DNA of 64,000 nucleotides. Origin: Spirochaetia bacterium. Its GTDB lineage: Bacteria; Spirochaetota; Spirochaetia; UBA9216. The notes under the pieces are model-generated. The model did no database searches. It saw nothing but the letters and a program-made list of their open reading frames with translations, and had not been told where the DNA came from. Below are positions 28,977-33,958 of the stretch, in pieces (positions within the stretch are counted from its first letter, which is position 1; the number at the start of each line of letters is the position of its first letter). The translations under genes were made by a program, and so were the position numbers. The stretch covers positions 768,001-832,000 of the forward strand of contig OZ223269.1 of NCBI GenBank assembly GCA_965140585.1. The letters are read 5' to 3'.

Positions 28977-29747
28977 CTAACCATGGAAGGTAAATCCATA
29001 TTTGTTGTATATGTTTTTTACATCTTCATCCTGCAGCATAAAGTTGTAGAATTTCTGTGTTATTTCATCATCAGTCAAAGCTGATATGAAATAAACGATT
29101 GGTATATGTGATTCATCCGGAAATACCGAAATGATTTTAACCTTATTTGATTTTTCCGCATCAGTGCGGTAAACAATTCCAAATTCACATTCTCCAAGTT
29201 CAACAACCATTAATGCTGCACGAACATCTGCTGCGGGCTGTATTCTCTCTGAAAGAACTGATTTCCAGTTAAAGTAATCAAGAGCCTGCTCTGCGTACAT
29301 CCCTGCCGGAACATGAGCCGGATCTCCGATGGATAAACGCCCCTTAAATAGTTCAGGTAAATCTGCATCAACATTAAGTGTGAAGGAGGTGGCAGTACTT
29401 TCCTCCGGTGCAATTAGTACAAGGTCATTAACAAGTAATGATGCTGTCTTAACTGGATATCCGGTATCAATTACATAAGTCATCCATTTCTCGGAGGCTG
29501 ATATATATATATTGGCGTTGGCTCCTTCAGTAATCTGCCTGGCAAGAGTACCGCTTGAAGCAGGATTGGATCTAACAAGAATTCCGGTTTTATCATAAAA
29601 GATTTTACCAGCATCATTAACTAAATCTGTTGTGCTTGCTGCATTAAAAACGATCAGTTCTGTGTCTTCATTCTCCGGAGTCCCGGTAGCAAACAAATTG
29701 ATGCTGATTATCATAAATACAAGTAAAAGATAAATCCTGTTAACCAA
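28977..29747 (-). CDS. modA: Molybdate-binding periplasmic protein
   Basis: AAST, ASSGTLARQI, GDPAHVPAG, GIVYRTDA; TTG start with AAGGAG. Confidence 0.93.
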   Translation of the reverse strand: MVNRIYLLLVFMIISINLFATGTPENEDTELIVFNAASTTDLVNDAGKIFYDKTGILVRSNPASSGTLARQITEGANANIYISASEKWMTYVIDTGYPVKTASLLVNDLVLIAPEESTATSFTLNVDADLPELFKGRLSIGDPAHVPAGMYAEQALDYFNWKSVLSERIQPAADVRAALMVVELGECEFGIVYRTDAEKSNKVKIISVFPDESHIPIVYFISALTDDEITQKFYNFMLQDEDVKNIYNKYGFTFHG

Positions 29748-29780
29748 ATATCCGCTCCTTTAATTTCTCAATTATCCTTC

Positions 29781-29797
29781 AGCATAAAACATGCCAA
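29781..29797 (-). promoter_or_regulatory. sigma54 promoter of modABC
   Basis: Minus strand TTGGCATG-TTTT-ATGCT (GG-N10-GC). Confidence 0.8.
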
Positions 29798-29893
29798 GTC
29801 TATTTTTAGAGGTGATATTGGATGATATAACTGAAAAATATCGATTTCCTTCTTATATAAGTAATGATTAAAAATTTTGATTTAAATATTGCC

Positions 29894-29940
29894 CTACAAA
29901 ACAGTAGTTTACATATCCGCAACCTACAAAAGTGTAGGTT
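29894..29940. promoter_or_regulatory. Tandem TAC-N6-GTA enhancer sites (AnfA-type UAS)
   Basis: CTAC-AAAACA-GTAG (29894-29907) and AACCTAC-AAAAGT-GTAGGTT (29921-29940). Confidence 0.75.
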
Positions 29941-30034
29941 TTTTTTAATCTGAAAATATAAAATTTATTATTTTTATACCAAAAAAGGCTGTTTTACCCC
30001 TAATTACTATCAATTTGAATGACATAAGATAATA

Positions 30035-30050
30035 TGGCTCAATTCTTGCT
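30035..30050 (+). promoter_or_regulatory. sigma54 promoter of nifV-activator operon
   Basis: TGGCTCA-ATTC-TTGCT (GG-N10-GC). Confidence 0.75.
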
Positions 30051-30061
30051 TTTAAAACGAT

Positions 30062-31204: not shown

Positions 31205-32771
31205 CGGCTGTTCTGATTGCGAATCCTGCAATAAATACCAGCTTAATCTTCTCTTTGAAATCAGCCGTTTACTATTGAGCGAAGATGATCTGTCGGTCGT
31301 CCTAAACACAATGCTAAAACGGCTGTCATCATTTCTTAATTTAAAAAGCAGTACCATAACAATCTTTAATAGAAAAACTGGAAATATTTCGATTGAAGAA
31401 GGTTTCGGTATTTCGGCCGAACAGCGTGCCCTGGGAGTATATAAGCCCGGAGAGGGAATTACCGGAAATGTAATAGAAACCGGTTTGCCTTCCGTAATTC
31501 CGGATATCTCACGTGAACCGAAGTTTCTTAATAGAACAAAATCTTTTCCGGAGGGGCAGGAAAAAAAGAAGACTGCATTTATTTCAGTTCCAGTAAAAGC
31601 GGGAAAAGAAGTCATAGGTACACTCAATGCTGAGAAAATAAATGAAAATACAGAAAGCCTGGAAGATGAGCTGTATCTGATTCAGATTGTAGCTGCTATG
31701 ATTTCCCAGGCTGTTCAGCTGTACCAGGCTCATCATGAAGAGAATGAACAGCTTCAGCTTGAAAATGAAAGGCTGCATAGAGAACTACAGGATAAATTTA
31801 ACCAGAACCTGTTTATTGGTACCTCAAAGGTTATTCGAAGGGTATTCGACTATGTCAATAAAATAGCCGATACTGTTGCAACCGTGCTGATTCTTGGTGA
31901 AAGCGGGGTTGGAAAGGAGCTTGTCGCAAAATCCATTCACTATGCAAGTAACCGGAAGAATAAACCCTTTGTAAAGCTTAACTGCGCTGCTCTTCCTGAA
32001 TCTATAATAGAAAGCGAATTATTCGGTCATGAGAAGGGTGCCTTTACAGGAGCGGTTAGAGAGAGAAAAGGCCGTTTTGAACTTGCACAGGGAGGAACTA
32101 TCTTTCTTGATGAGGTAGGAGAACTTAGTCTTAATGTTCAGACGAAATTACTAAGGGTTCTTCAGGAGCGTGAATTTGAACGTGTGGGCGGTACTCAGAC
32201 AATTAAATGCGATGTAAGAGTTATTACTGCAACAAACCGTAATCTTGAAGATGAAATTAAAAACGGAAATTTCCGGGAAGACCTCTATTACCGGCTTAAT
32301 ATTATACCAATAACAGTACCTCCTCTACGGGAGCGGAAATCGGATATTCCACTTTTGGTTAATCATTTTATAGAAAAATATAATGCACTTAATAATAAAA
32401 ATGTCCGCCGAATTTCAACACCTGCAATTGATATGCTTTTTTCCTATCATTGGCCGGGGAATATCCGTGAACTTGAAAACTGTATGGAACATGCTGTTAT
32501 TCTCAGCGAGGATAATGTTATTCACGGTTATCATCTACCGCCGACTCTTCAGATGAGAGTTCCTAAAAGTACCGGGAGTAAAACTGATCGCGGTTCAATG
32601 CAGCAGCAGCTGGACGCACTGGAGTATGAACTGCTGGTTGAAGCTTTAAAAGCTGCTAATGGTAATCTTTCGGAAGCGGCAAAAGAGCTTGGATTAACCA
32701 ACAGGATGATAGGTGTACGAATGCAGAAATACGGGCTTGATTATAAAAACTATCGAAAGTACCGGAAATAA
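31167..32771 (+). CDS. nifA: sigma54-dependent nitrogenase activator (GAF-AAA+-HTH; NifA family, AnfA-like)
   Basis: GAF (GEGITG), GESGVGKE, GAFTGA, FREDLYYRLN, WPGNIRELEN, HTH; N-terminal CSDCESC; start overlaps nifV end. Confidence 0.9.
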   Translation: MSLNTAENLPQYNGCSDCESCNKYQLNLLFEISRLLLSEDDLSVVLNTMLKRLSSFLNLKSSTITIFNRKTGNISIEEGFGISAEQRALGVYKPGEGITGNVIETGLPSVIPDISREPKFLNRTKSFPEGQEKKKTAFISVPVKAGKEVIGTLNAEKINENTESLEDELYLIQIVAAMISQAVQLYQAHHEENEQLQLENERLHRELQDKFNQNLFIGTSKVIRRVFDYVNKIADTVATVLILGESGVGKELVAKSIHYASNRKNKPFVKLNCAALPESIIESELFGHEKGAFTGAVRERKGRFELAQGGTIFLDEVGELSLNVQTKLLRVLQEREFERVGGTQTIKCDVRVITATNRNLEDEIKNGNFREDLYYRLNIIPITVPPLRERKSDIPLLVNHFIEKYNALNNKNVRRISTPAIDMLFSYHWPGNIRELENCMEHAVILSEDNVIHGYHLPPTLQMRVPKSTGSKTDRGSMQQQLDALEYELLVEALKAANGNLSEAAKELGLTNRMIGVRMQKYGLDYKNYRKYRK

Positions 32772-32777
32772 TAAAAA

Positions 32778-32933
32778 TACATATATGTAGAAAAAGGATT
32801 AAAATAGGATTTTTAGTCCTTTTTTTTTTACCTTTCTGTAAAAACTTGTTTCTGCCTATTTATACACAGATGTAAAAATGTAAATAAAGTTCTCCGGAAA
32901 ATACAATAATGTAAATTATATAACGTTTTGATA
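32778..32933. promoter_or_regulatory. Four TAC-N6-GTA sites plus IHF-type site upstream of nifH
   Basis: Sites at 32778-89, 32829-40, 32863-74, 32902-13; minus-strand TATCAA-AACG-TTA at 32921-33 matches WATCAANNNNTTR. Confidence 0.7.
32791..32829 (+). terminator. Intrinsic terminator after activator gene
   Basis: AGGATTAAAA-taggat-TTTTAGTCCT followed by long T run. Confidence 0.75.
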
Positions 32934-33043
32934 AACAAAATATACTGTCATAAAACTTTGTTTAACAAAAAATTACGTAAAAATAGATGATATTACGTAG
33001 ATTTAGCAGTAAAACTGACATTTTACAGACATAAAAAGAAAAC

Positions 33044-33060
33044 TTGGCATGTTACCTGCA
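33044..33060 (+). promoter_or_regulatory. sigma54 promoter of nifH operon
   Basis: TTGGCATG-TTAC-CTGCA; shares ACTTGGCATGTT with the modA promoter. Confidence 0.85.
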
Positions 33061-33133
33061 TCATATATGTGACTGCTGATAAAAAGCAGGAAAATCTCCG
33101 GCATTAGTCCGGCTTATACATTGGAGGAACACA

Positions 33134-33958
33134 ATGAGAAAGATTGCTATCTACGGTAAGGGTGGAATTGGTAAATCTACTACTACACAGAATACCGTTG
33201 CGGGATTAGCCGAGATGGGTAAAAAAGTAATGGTTGTAGGCTGCGATCCAAAAGCAGATTCAACAAGGCTGCTGCTTGGGGGGCTGGCTCAGAAGACAGT
33301 TCTGGATACCCTCAGAGAAGAAGGCGAAGATGTAGAACTTGAAGACATCATGAAAACAGGTTTCGGAAATACATCATGTACTGAGTCAGGAGGCCCTGAA
33401 CCTGGTGTAGGATGTGCTGGCCGCGGCATTATTACTTCAATTAACATGCTTGAACAGCTTGGTGCTTATGATGAAGACAAACAGCTTGACTATGCATTTT
33501 ACGATGTTCTCGGAGATGTTGTATGCGGAGGGTTTGCAATGCCTATCCGTGACGGTAAAGCTCAGGAAATATACATTGTTGTTTCAGGTGAAATGATGGC
33601 CATGTATGCAGCAAATAATATCTGTAAGGGTATTGTAAAATATGCTGACGCAGGCGGAGTAAGACTCGGCGGTCTTATCTGTAACTCACGTAAAGTAGAT
33701 AACGAAAGAGCAATGATAGAAGAACTTGCCCGTCAGCTTGGTACACAGATGATTCACTTCGTACCCAGAGAAAACATGGTACAGAAGGCTGAAATACACA
33801 GAAAAACAGTTATTGATTTTGAACCTACCCATGCTCAGGCTGATGAATACAGGGCTCTTGCTAAAAAAATAGATGAAAATCAGATGTTTGTTGTACCCAA
33901 TCCGCTTGAGATTGAAGAACTTGAGAAACTGCTTATTGATTTCGGAATTGCAAACTAA
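33134..33958 (+). CDS. nifH: Nitrogenase Fe protein
   Basis: [41 protein letters not shown]. Confidence 0.98.

Follow-up and report, generated by a model that had tools for sequence, protein, structure and literature searches.

TAC-N6-GTA enhancers and a candidate two-tier cascade of paralogous activators at the molybdenum nitrogenase region of a spirochaete

How is a molybdenum (Mo) nitrogenase switched on in a bacterium whose nitrogen fixation (nif) spacers lack the enhancer motif of NifA? Textbook nif regulation, with NifA, TGT-N10-ACA, NtrC and NifL, derives from aerobic and facultative Proteobacteria, and anaerobic diazotrophs such as the spirochaetes are largely uncharacterised. The question is raised by a 64,000-nucleotide stretch of contig OZ223269.1 from a Spirochaetia bacterium (positions 768,001 to 832,000; hereafter the window, which is G000:C6:768001-832000 in the coordinates of the source genome G000, of 4.85 Mb and ~42% GC). 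Here the genes modCBA, a nifV-like gene followed by the gene of a sigma-54 activator, and a Mo-nitrogenase operon are set apart by two spacers that carry TAC-N6-GTA palindromes. We propose, with modest confidence, that a two-tier cascade of paralogous regulators controls this Mo-only region, in which the nif genes would be switched on through TAC-N6-GTA sites by an activator related to AnfA and VnfA, probably downstream of a sister protein that acts as a general nitrogen-scavenging regulator.

The nitrogenase is of the Mo type, as an earlier note on the window had stated. The HSYD of NifD lies at residue 500, and the protein scores above the nifD cutoff (675 bits vs 653.55) but below those of ANFD (303 vs 874) and VNFD (327 vs 823); nifE and nifN are present, and the source genome has a single, Mo-type nifH/D/K set. 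Neither AnfG/VnfG (PF03139) nor an alternative nitrogenase was found in any of 301 sampled Spirochaetia genomes, the source genome included. The same note had described six TAC-N6-GTA palindromes (29895, 29925, 32778, 32829, 32863 and 32902) and three sigma-54 promoters before modA, nifV and nifH, and all are present where it placed them (Table 1). The promoters are GG-N10-GC elements close to TGGCAC-N5-TTGC, with matches at 8-9 of 11 consensus positions and TAC-N6-GTA sites 110-267 bp upstream; the site at 29894..29907 sits between the divergent modA and nifV promoters. Its rough estimate that chance would supply well under one site also holds, since the 676 bp of the two spacers (26-27% GC) contain six sites where 0.16-0.21 are expected (analytic order-0 and order-1 expectations from local composition; Poisson P(>=6) ~2e-8 to 9e-8). 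The window as a whole contains 14 sites, six of them in the two spacers, vs 7.06 +/- 2.53 expected. Among 757 sites genome-wide, the four before nifH form the only cluster of at least four in 4.85 Mb, and 27 lie 60-300 bp upstream of one of 315 sigma-54-like elements where ~11.8 are expected; four control palindromes occur there at expectation. TGT-N10-ACA, which the note had looked for in vain, is absent from both spacers (the nearest copies are at 27537 and 35043) and is not enriched near sigma-54-like elements genome-wide (18 observed vs 18.0 expected).

These arrangements recur in related genomes. The activator has homologs at E<=1e-100 in 205 of the 301 Spirochaetia genomes, and nifH is present in 30. 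The loci compared (30 that were fetched, plus L001, the source genome's own paralog locus) include two ortholog groups, one with nifV-activator(-nifH) in 15 loci and one with the activator beside amtB in 9, and all 15 genomes with a nif-linked copy hold at least two homologs. Each of the 10 nifH-adjacent loci carries TAC-N6-GTA 110-270 bp before a TGGCAC-N5-TTGC-like element. Upstream of nifH in the 30 nifH-bearing genomes, a sigma-54-like element is found in 29, at least one perfect TAC-N6-GTA within 420 bp in 23, a 39-41 bp pair (up to one core mismatch allowed) in 15, a 29-31 bp pair in 6, and TGT-N10-ACA in 4. The bases between TAC and GTA vary freely among genomes. This comparison of nifH upstream regions bears out the view that the palindromes are conserved, enhancer-like sites and that no NifA-type upstream activating sequence (UAS) is present at the locus. 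The promoters are likewise retained: the modA element is identical in a same-genus genome and has minus-strand equivalents in L011 and L012, and 11 of 14 distinct orthologous loci show a sigma-54-like match (8 or more of the 11 consensus positions) 19-37 bp ahead of the start inferred for nifV, the exceptions being L012, L013 and L025, which have none there. The site at 32778 keeps both triplets in the same-genus genome, where its spacer has changed, and has no counterpart in more distant loci; its function is the least certain of all.

The six sites of the window are not of one kind. Those before nifH read T-TAC…GTA-A with a pair 39 bp apart, and those between modA and nifV read C-TAC…GTA-G and lie 30 bp apart. 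Counted over both half-sites, the base 5' of TAC at nifH is T in 22, A in 8, G in 5 and C in 1 (n=36), vs C in 20 of 42 half-sites at nifV and in 8 of 16 at amtB. A 39-41 bp pair precedes nifH in 9/9 distinct nif-linked loci, and 11 of the 14 orthologous loci have a 29-30 bp pair before nifV. Within the source genome, 30-31 bp pairs precede the sigma-54 promoters of four ATP-binding cassette (ABC) transporter operons and of modA/nifV, with one further doubtful case, and at the amtB promoter two sites 30 bp apart, each with a single mismatch, can be made out by eye; a clear 39 bp pair occurs at nifH and a second, weaker one before a sigma-factor gene. The C-flanked class extends to a second phylum, reached through a delta-proteobacterial metagenome-assembled genome (MAG) and represented by 301 genomes. 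Eight of these encode a homolog at E<=1e-150, six of which adjoin amtB, in DNA of 61-70% GC; 16 of 17 TAC-N6-GTA sites in these loci are CTAC…GTAG, 29-31 bp pairs occur in 5 of 6 amtB spacers, and the regulators adjoining the sites carry (T/S)ER recognition helices. In L142 and L153 of this phylum the recognition helix of the amtB-type regulator is ISARKM or ITDRKL rather than ITERIM, and no TAC-N6-GTA is present in the 4.5 kb loci, which fits a role of this helix position in the choice of motif. In two nifH-bearing spirochaetes, G005 (99% complete) and G054 (93%), the sole homolog at E<=1e-120 is a TER-type paralog, and in both the paired sites before nifH are 30 bp apart, with flanks that vary among A, G and C and include C-flanked sites. 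In G137 a TNR-type regulator adjoins nifH sites that are T-flanked yet separated by 31 bp. Spacing is therefore no strict rule, and helix type is followed more closely by flank than by spacing.

Other promoters of the source genome carry related elements. Five strong sigma-54 elements, at C1:131338(-), C3:141961(-), C4:251341(-), C4:494589(+) and C6:574542(+), have dyads of the TACAT..ATGTA type 87-142 bp upstream. They precede operons for ABC transporters (peptide, polyamine-like and others) and an aminotransferase/aldehyde dehydrogenase operon, and as a group look like a nitrogen-scavenging regulon. At C4:468006-468170 the sigma-54 element TGGCACGTTTCCTGCT precedes the 279 aa sigma-factor gene, and a GTACAAAAAAGTAT site 109 bp upstream, with its weaker partner 39 bp away, makes up the genome's only other 39 bp pair.

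The activator itself lies closer to AnfA and VnfA than to canonical NifA, in agreement with the earlier note, which had likened its C-terminus to AnfA more than to NifA; trees, a topology test, signature motifs and identity all point the same way. It passes TIGR01817 by 8 bits (536.9 vs a cutoff of 528.85). This model is not discriminating, because an amtB-linked, non-nif paralog (C7:2182-3666, 50% identical, adjoining amtB-glnK) passes too, with 559.1 bits. Both paralogs of the source genome (559 and 537 bits) thus exceed the equivalog nifA cutoff of 528.85, and only one is nif-linked. In Kosakonia the true NifA scores 721 bits and AnfA, identified by its context 3.3 kb from anfG, 472. Automatic 'NifA' labels in Spirochaetia are mostly wrong, because homologs occur in 205 of 301 genomes and nifH in 30. 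Identity is 46% to the context-labelled Kosakonia AnfA and 34-43% to annotated NifA proteins. The N-terminus carries C-x2-C-x2-C (Cys15, 18 and 21), the C-terminus quoted in the note is present, and the helix-turn-helix (HTH) region reads GNLSEAAKELGLTNRMIGVR rather than the NifA form GW(V/I)Q.KAAR.LG.T(P/T)RQ..Y. These signatures sort the family into groups: nif-linked spirochaete proteins have N-terminal C-x2-C and GNLS.AA..LGLTNR(M/Q).G(I/V)R..KY; amtB-linked proteins lack the cysteines and have GNMAKAAR.LGITERIMGLR; Kosakonia AnfA and relatives have SCRLGEC and GN(V/I)SRAA..L(N/G)(M/L)TRR.LGLR; VnfA-type proteins, such as that of Azotobacter beijerinckii, have CECDFGEC and LGLTRR.LGLR; and six annotated NifA proteins (Rahnella, Kosakonia, Methylococcus, Cupriavidus, R. 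etli and NGR234) have GWVQAKAAR.LG.T(P/T)RQ..Y. The GW…T(P/T)RQ form is shared by these six and the D. vulgaris pDV1 protein, as TPRQ in five of them and pDV1 and as TTRQ in Methylococcus. C-x2-C is found in 13 of 14 distinct nif-linked sequences (14 of 15 listed, when the near-identical same-genus copy is counted) and is missing from L025; the cysteines lie N-terminal to GAF, in a position equivalent to VnfA C-x-C-x4-C and AnfA C-x4-C, with a different pattern.

A quick tree of 63 rows and a careful one of 50 (13 near-duplicates and long-branch outgroups dropped) agree. The six NifA references and the pDV1 protein form one clade (ultrafast bootstrap/Shimodaira-Hasegawa-like likelihood-ratio support, UFBoot/SH-aLRT, 99/89) with the activator outside it, and all non-NifA rows form a second (99/99). 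Within the latter, the nif-linked spirochaete proteins join the AnfA/VnfA-type clade, with SH-aLRT of 99 in the quick tree and support of 89/87 in its careful counterpart; the joint clade has 30 rows and includes 13 proteobacterial AnfA/VnfA-type proteins, Chloroherpeton and the delta-proteobacterial MAG. The amtB-linked proteins are not part of this subclade and lie with those of Omnitrophica, Planctomycetota and Brocadiia. A single clade of nif-linked spirochaete proteins and canonical NifA, the grouping that the earlier note had set against its own view, is rejected by the approximately unbiased (AU) test, which was run after the first tree had been seen (delta lnL 75, p = 0.0036). These results support a position of the nif-linked activator outside canonical NifA and closer to AnfA/VnfA; it would appear to work like the AnfA/VnfA type and yet to be, in function, the nif activator. 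The earlier suggestion that such control is possibly ancestral is compatible with the tree but would depend on where its root lies and on which way the change went.

From the distribution of site classes and paralogs we infer which protein binds which site, what signals are sensed and a rule of recognition. Both tiers would be paralogs of one GAF-AAA+-HTH family of enhancer-binding proteins (EBPs), to which proteobacterial AnfA and VnfA also belong and whose members would read dyads with a TAC-N6-GTA core. Since the activator gene is itself read from a sigma-54 promoter, its expression has to be initiated by a different EBP. In the first tier, nitrogen limitation would lead the amtB-linked paralog, which lacks N-terminal cysteines and has the helix …ITERKMGLR…, to bind C-TAC-N6-GTA-G pairs 30 bp apart at the sigma-54 promoters of amtB-glnK and several ABC importers; through the shared pair at 29894-29937 it would also turn on the divergent modCBA and nifV-activator operons. 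In the second tier, the nif-linked activator, with helix …LTNRMIGVR…, would bind the T/A-flanked 39 bp pair at 32862-32914, aided by 32828 and perhaps 32778, and from ~140-220 bp upstream would activate the nifH sigma-54 promoter and so nifHI1I2DKENB. As in VnfA, a redox sensor built on a metal or an Fe-S centre may reside in its C-x2-C-x2-C. The base flanking TAC would be set by the helix residue that follows the conserved Thr/Ser, with Glu specifying C, Asn specifying T or A, and Arg specifying G (VnfA GTAC), the last pairing being drawn from the VnfA motif GT(T/A)C-N6-GTAC given in excerpts of PMC9542535. On these grounds the earlier note's proposal that all six sites form one regulon is probably not correct, given the C/G flanks and 30 bp spacing at modA/nifV vs the T/A flanks and 39 bp at nifH. 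Its broader claim, that an activator of the alternative type controls both the Mo system and its importer, is partly supported, in the type of activator and in the conserved sites, while the importer's sites probably belong to the other paralog.

Several observations weigh against this cascade. The assignment of site classes to paralogs is built on correlations of adjacency, flank and spacing among related, non-independent genomes. Seven of the 30 nifH promoters have no perfect site and 15 have no 39-41 bp pair; a 30 bp pair with at most one mismatch is found in only 3 of 9 spirochaete amtB spacers; the farthest nifH site, 32778, is A-TAC…GTA-G; T/A-flanked pairs also occur at a great distance upstream of nifV, in L013 and L014; and the 31 bp spacing at nifH in G137 departs from the pattern. 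On the protein side, the C-x2-C motif is unlike those of VnfA and AnfA, and the sister link to AnfA/VnfA has moderate support in the careful tree. The AnfA/VnfA references were labelled by context for Kosakonia only (AnfG in 3 of 20 genomes supplied the context-labelled AnfA) and otherwise by Cys motif and source names, and the trees were built without the characterised proteins of A. vinelandii, R. capsulatus/Rhodobacter and R. palustris. Five genomes taken from 80 Enterobacterales/Aeromonadales loci, scanned with Rahnella NifA, yielded no AnfG, and a plasmid tblastn search returned NifA proteins and the pDV1 protein only. Finally, the Kosakonia anfH promoter has no perfect TAC-N6-GTA, so the motif is not confirmed for gamma-proteobacterial AnfA.

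The rival that deserves most attention, though we regard it as unlikely, is that the nif-linked activator binds all six sites and drives modCBA, its own operon (by autoregulation from a basal level) and nifH, with flank and spacing tuning affinity. The common TAC-N6-GTA core, the likeness of the paralogs' recognition helices (LTNRMIG/ITERKMG), the conserved modCBA-nifV-activator-nifH synteny and the direct control of a mod operon by VnfA1 in Azotobacter, reported in excerpts of PMC9542535, are all as this account would have them. However, a sigma-54 promoter stays silent unless an EBP acts on it, which leaves pure autoregulation with no way to begin, and the flanks and 30 bp spacing of the modA/nifV pair are those of the nif-unrelated amtB and ABC-transporter promoters and recur beside TER-type regulators in second-phylum loci that show no nif genes, while a C flank occurs in 1 of 36 nifH half-sites. 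The converse, that the amtB-linked regulator binds every TAC-N6-GTA site, nifH included, and that the nif-linked activator uses another element or acts as a co-regulator or hetero-oligomer partner, seems to us improbable. It draws on G005 and G054, where nifH is apparently served by the general paralog alone, and on interactions between paralogous EBPs documented in Azotobacter (excerpts of PMC9542535). Yet the T/A-flanked 39-41 bp architecture is found only in genomes with a TNR-type nif-linked paralog; in the source genome its one clear example is at nifH, with the weaker pair upstream of the C4:468154 element; and nothing else in the nifH spacers stood out as a conserved dyad, though no formal motif discovery was made.

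We give very little credence to the notion that the palindromes are not enhancers at all, and are instead chance dyads in AT-rich DNA, terminators, or operators of an unrelated factor such as an NrpR homolog. The low GC content of the spacers, the terminator-like score of 29921-29940 and the presence of an NrpR gene at C7:3854-4858 are what lend it any weight. It has to contend with six sites where local composition predicts 0.2, with triplets kept across families while spacer bases change, with the same dyads in DNA of 61-70% GC, and with the absence of a plus-strand gene end before 29921; placement 90-220 bp upstream of -24/-12 elements and helically phased pairs are the marks of an EBP UAS rather than of an operator. 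NrpR in particular is disfavoured as the binding factor, as nrpR is absent from the other 46 regulator loci examined.

Table 1. Features of the mod-nif region (positions in the window)
Feature	Position	Strand	Details
modC	27229-28281	-	TIGR02142 265.8 bits, under cutoff 285
modB	28278-28970	-	TIGR02141 200.5 bits (cutoff 182.6)
modA	28977-29747	-	TIGR01256 151.8 bits (cutoff 62.5)
modA-nifV spacer			314 bp
modA sigma-54 promoter	29782..29796	-	TGGCATGTTTTATGC; 35 nt before modA start
UAS site, C-flank class	29894..29907	.	CTACAAAACAGTAG; nifV-distal; 140 bp from nifV element
UAS site, C-flank class	29924..29937	.	CTACAAAAGTGTAG; 30 bp from site 29894..29907
nifV-activator operon sigma-54 promoter	30035..30049	+	TGGCTCAATTCTTGC
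nifV-like homocitrate synthase	30062..31204	+	TIGR02660 354.8 bits, under cutoff 462.9
nif-linked sigma-54 activator	31167..32771	+	534 aa; Pfam: GAF, AAA+, HTH_8 (…GNLSEAAKELGLTNRMIGVRMQKYGLDYKNYR)
Activator-nifH spacer			362 bp
Dyad	32778..32789	.	TACATATATGTA; 7 nt past activator stop codon; 267 bp from nifH promoter, farthest
UAS site, T/A-flank class	32828..32841	.	TTACCTTTCTGTAA; 216 bp upstream of nifH -24 element
UAS site	32862..32875	.	ATACACAGATGTAA; distal member of conserved 39 bp pair
UAS site	32901..32914	.	ATACAATAATGTAA; proximal member of 39 bp pair; 143 bp upstream of -24 element
nifH sigma-54 promoter	33045..33059	+	TGGCATGTTACCTGC
Mo-nitrogenase operon nifHI1I2DKENB and ferredoxin	33134..42116	+	NCBIfam
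nifH start	33134	+	
nifI1 start	33983	+	
nifI2 start	34309	+	
nifD start	34683	+	
nifK start	36345	+	
nifE start	37772	+	
nifN start	39136	+	
nifB start	40502	+	
2Fe-2S ferredoxin start	41808	+	

The genes around these sites are set out in Table 1; the nearest protein relatives are labelled Spirochaetales. By its protein families modCBA (27229..29747) is taken to be a molybdate ABC importer, divergent from nifV; the same divergence of modABC and nifV was seen in each of the further related loci that were examined (4 of 4). The 3' end of nifV overlaps the start of the activator gene, so the two look like one operon, and their adjacency is kept in 15 loci. Among the nif operon proteins, NCBIfam cutoffs are passed by nifH, nifD, nifK and nifE, and nifN (287.8 vs 326.8) and nifB (313.9 vs 343.65) fall just under theirs. 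No nifL was found in the nif region, where all open reading frames from modC to a major facilitator superfamily (MFS) transporter gene belong to other families; the rest of the genome was not searched for it. The MFS gene (42137-43360) begins 21 bp 3' of the ferredoxin gene on the same strand and could be the last gene of the nif operon.

Two hairpins and a second regulator locus merit mention. At 29921-29940, around the proximal modA/nifV site, a stem of 8 bp runs into a stretch of T and is scored as a terminator-like hairpin; the terminator reading was rejected, as no plus-strand gene ends upstream, and a longer dyad may be all that the extended stem AACCTAC…GTAGGTT amounts to. A second, imperfect hairpin, noted by eye at 32790-32830 between the first two nifH-side sites, is followed by ten T; the stem is better formed in the same-genus genome (L010), a simple terminator scan did not list it, and it is probably the activator terminator. 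At the amtB-linked locus, a CCTACAGAAATGTAGG dyad ~20 bp before the activator start codon may serve in autoregulation. The NrpR homolog (L001:2960-3967; PF01995 265 bits, with a winged helix) is divergent from this activator. NrpR is a nitrogen repressor known from methanogens.

The findings suggest that the AnfA/VnfA regulators represent a widespread type of nif regulator rather than a speciality of alternative nitrogenases. A broader scheme, which we offer tentatively and hold to be possible rather than probable, is that nitrogen control without NtrC is exerted across phyla by one GAF-type EBP family, in which a single helix residue sets the flank and thereby separates the regulons of co-resident paralogs. 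Under this scheme the amtB-linked member would be a master nitrogen-scavenging regulator in many anaerobes, the Cys-bearing nif-linked member the original Mo-nitrogenase activator, AnfA/VnfA a late offshoot, and NifA with TGT-N10-ACA a separate, non-ancestral lineage. The locus offers testable parts in its defined enhancer sites, two paralogous activators and candidate one-residue recognition rule, with a bearing on reconstructions of nitrogenase evolution, on annotation, in which databases label anaerobe activators 'NifA' indiscriminately (PMC12903952), and on the transfer of nif clusters together with their controls.

Parts of this picture have precedents. The binding motifs that the earlier note set out are given in excerpts of PMC7294313, namely TGT-N10-ACA for NifA, TAC-N6-GTA for alpha-proteobacterial AnfA and GTAC-N6-GTAC for VnfA, together with A. 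vinelandii AnfA sites that lack TAC. For Azotobacter, excerpts of PMC9542535 report a VnfA1 motif from chromatin immunoprecipitation sequencing (ChIP-seq) of GT(T/A)C-N6-GTAC, usually two per promoter, a VnfA1-dependent sigma-54 modA2B2C2 operon, N-terminal cysteines required for VnfA/AnfA activity, and repression of vnfA and anfA expression by Mo. The paradox implied by the note, of regulators that are off when Mo is present, disappears on the latter account, repression acting on expression and not being a property of the proteins. A 'VnfA' EBP group linked to nitrogenase control is listed in 11 phyla or classes (PMC3162934), and in Desulfovibrionales a GAF-type EBP is predicted to regulate a Mo-nif operon and a nifV-like gene via CTACAAAAATGTAG-type sites (CTACA-N4-TGTAG), the N-terminal domain of DVUA0143 resembling AnfA and VnfA (excerpts of PMC4641369, Kazakov et al. 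2015). Given these sources (PMC4641369, PMC3162934, PMC9542535), the note's idea is less surprising than it first seemed; an AnfA/VnfA-type activator for a Mo system and Mo importer is partly anticipated and not paradoxical. No literature on spirochaete nif enhancers or on a paralog cascade was found in searches whose coverage of subscription journals was thin (PMC11018506 and PMC13474568 contributed nothing to the point), and as far as these searches reach, the spirochaete enhancers, the two architectures, the paralog cascade, the cross-phylum amtB dyads and the candidate recognition rule are new.

Set beside these systems, the spirochaete locus shares features with each. Alpha-proteobacterial AnfA (R. 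capsulatus) is likewise a GAF-AAA+-HTH sigma-54 activator with cysteines N-terminal to GAF, acting where two similar dyads with a TAC-N6-GTA core lie upstream of the H-gene sigma-54 promoter, and the Kosakonia AnfA signature GN..(A)A..L..T.R..G.R..KY matches the activator. In contrast to AnfA, the spirochaete protein would control a Mo nitrogenase in a genome without anf/vnf genes, has C-x2-C(-x2-C) instead of C-x4-C, is 46% identical to the Kosakonia protein, and belongs to a clade beside, not inside, that of proteobacterial AnfA/VnfA. Azotobacter vinelandii VnfA1, as described in excerpts of PMC9542535, resembles the spirochaete system in usually having two dyads per promoter, a sigma-54 molybdate-transporter operon in its regulon, N-terminal cysteines (in VnfA1 needed for activity) and paralogous EBPs with related DNA-binding determinants in one genome; it differs in its G flank (vs T/A or C), in its helix LTRR (vs LTNR or ITER), and in that vnfA expression is repressed by Mo, whereas the spirochaete system serves a Mo enzyme.

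The Desulfovibrionales regulon of DVUA0143 (excerpts of PMC4641369) also comprises a Mo-nif operon with nifI1/I2 and a divergent nifV-like gene behind sigma-54 promoters, and on pDV1 one CTACAAAAATGTAG-type site was confirmed, ~110 bp before the nifH promoter, where no TGT-N10-ACA is present. It differs from the spirochaete case in the 18 bp between its two sites, in the lack of any proposed second tier, and in the pDV1 protein, whose …GLTPRQMGYR… helix is of the NifA type and which falls with canonical NifA in the trees. This GAF activator (L040:2998-4545; L154) thus combines a NifA-type helix with a nifH promoter that has CTAC-N6-GTAG-type sites. The supplementary table of PMC4641369 gives the …GLTPRQMGYR… helix for DVU1949 and a different one for DVUA0143, so that either its rows are shifted or the regulator-to-site assignment needs re-examination. 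The C-flanked Desulfovibrionales motif matches the class that we assign to the general amtB-linked paralog, and the published regulator assignment may need another look.

Canonical NifA shares the domain architecture of the spirochaete activator and its role as a nif-linked activator of a nifH sigma-54 promoter, and both pass the TIGR01817 cutoff; it stands apart in its separate clade, in the helix GW.Q.KAAR.LG.T(P/T)RQ (vs GN.S.AA..LGLTNR), and in its TGT-N10-ACA motif, which the spirochaete target spacers lack. In the cascade of Klebsiella and other Proteobacteria, the general nitrogen EBP NtrC turns on nifA from a sigma-54 promoter and NifA turns on nifH. The proposed spirochaete cascade would follow the same two-step logic with different parts, since both of its tiers would be GAF-type paralogs, no response-regulator NtrC is implicated, and the DNA motifs differ.

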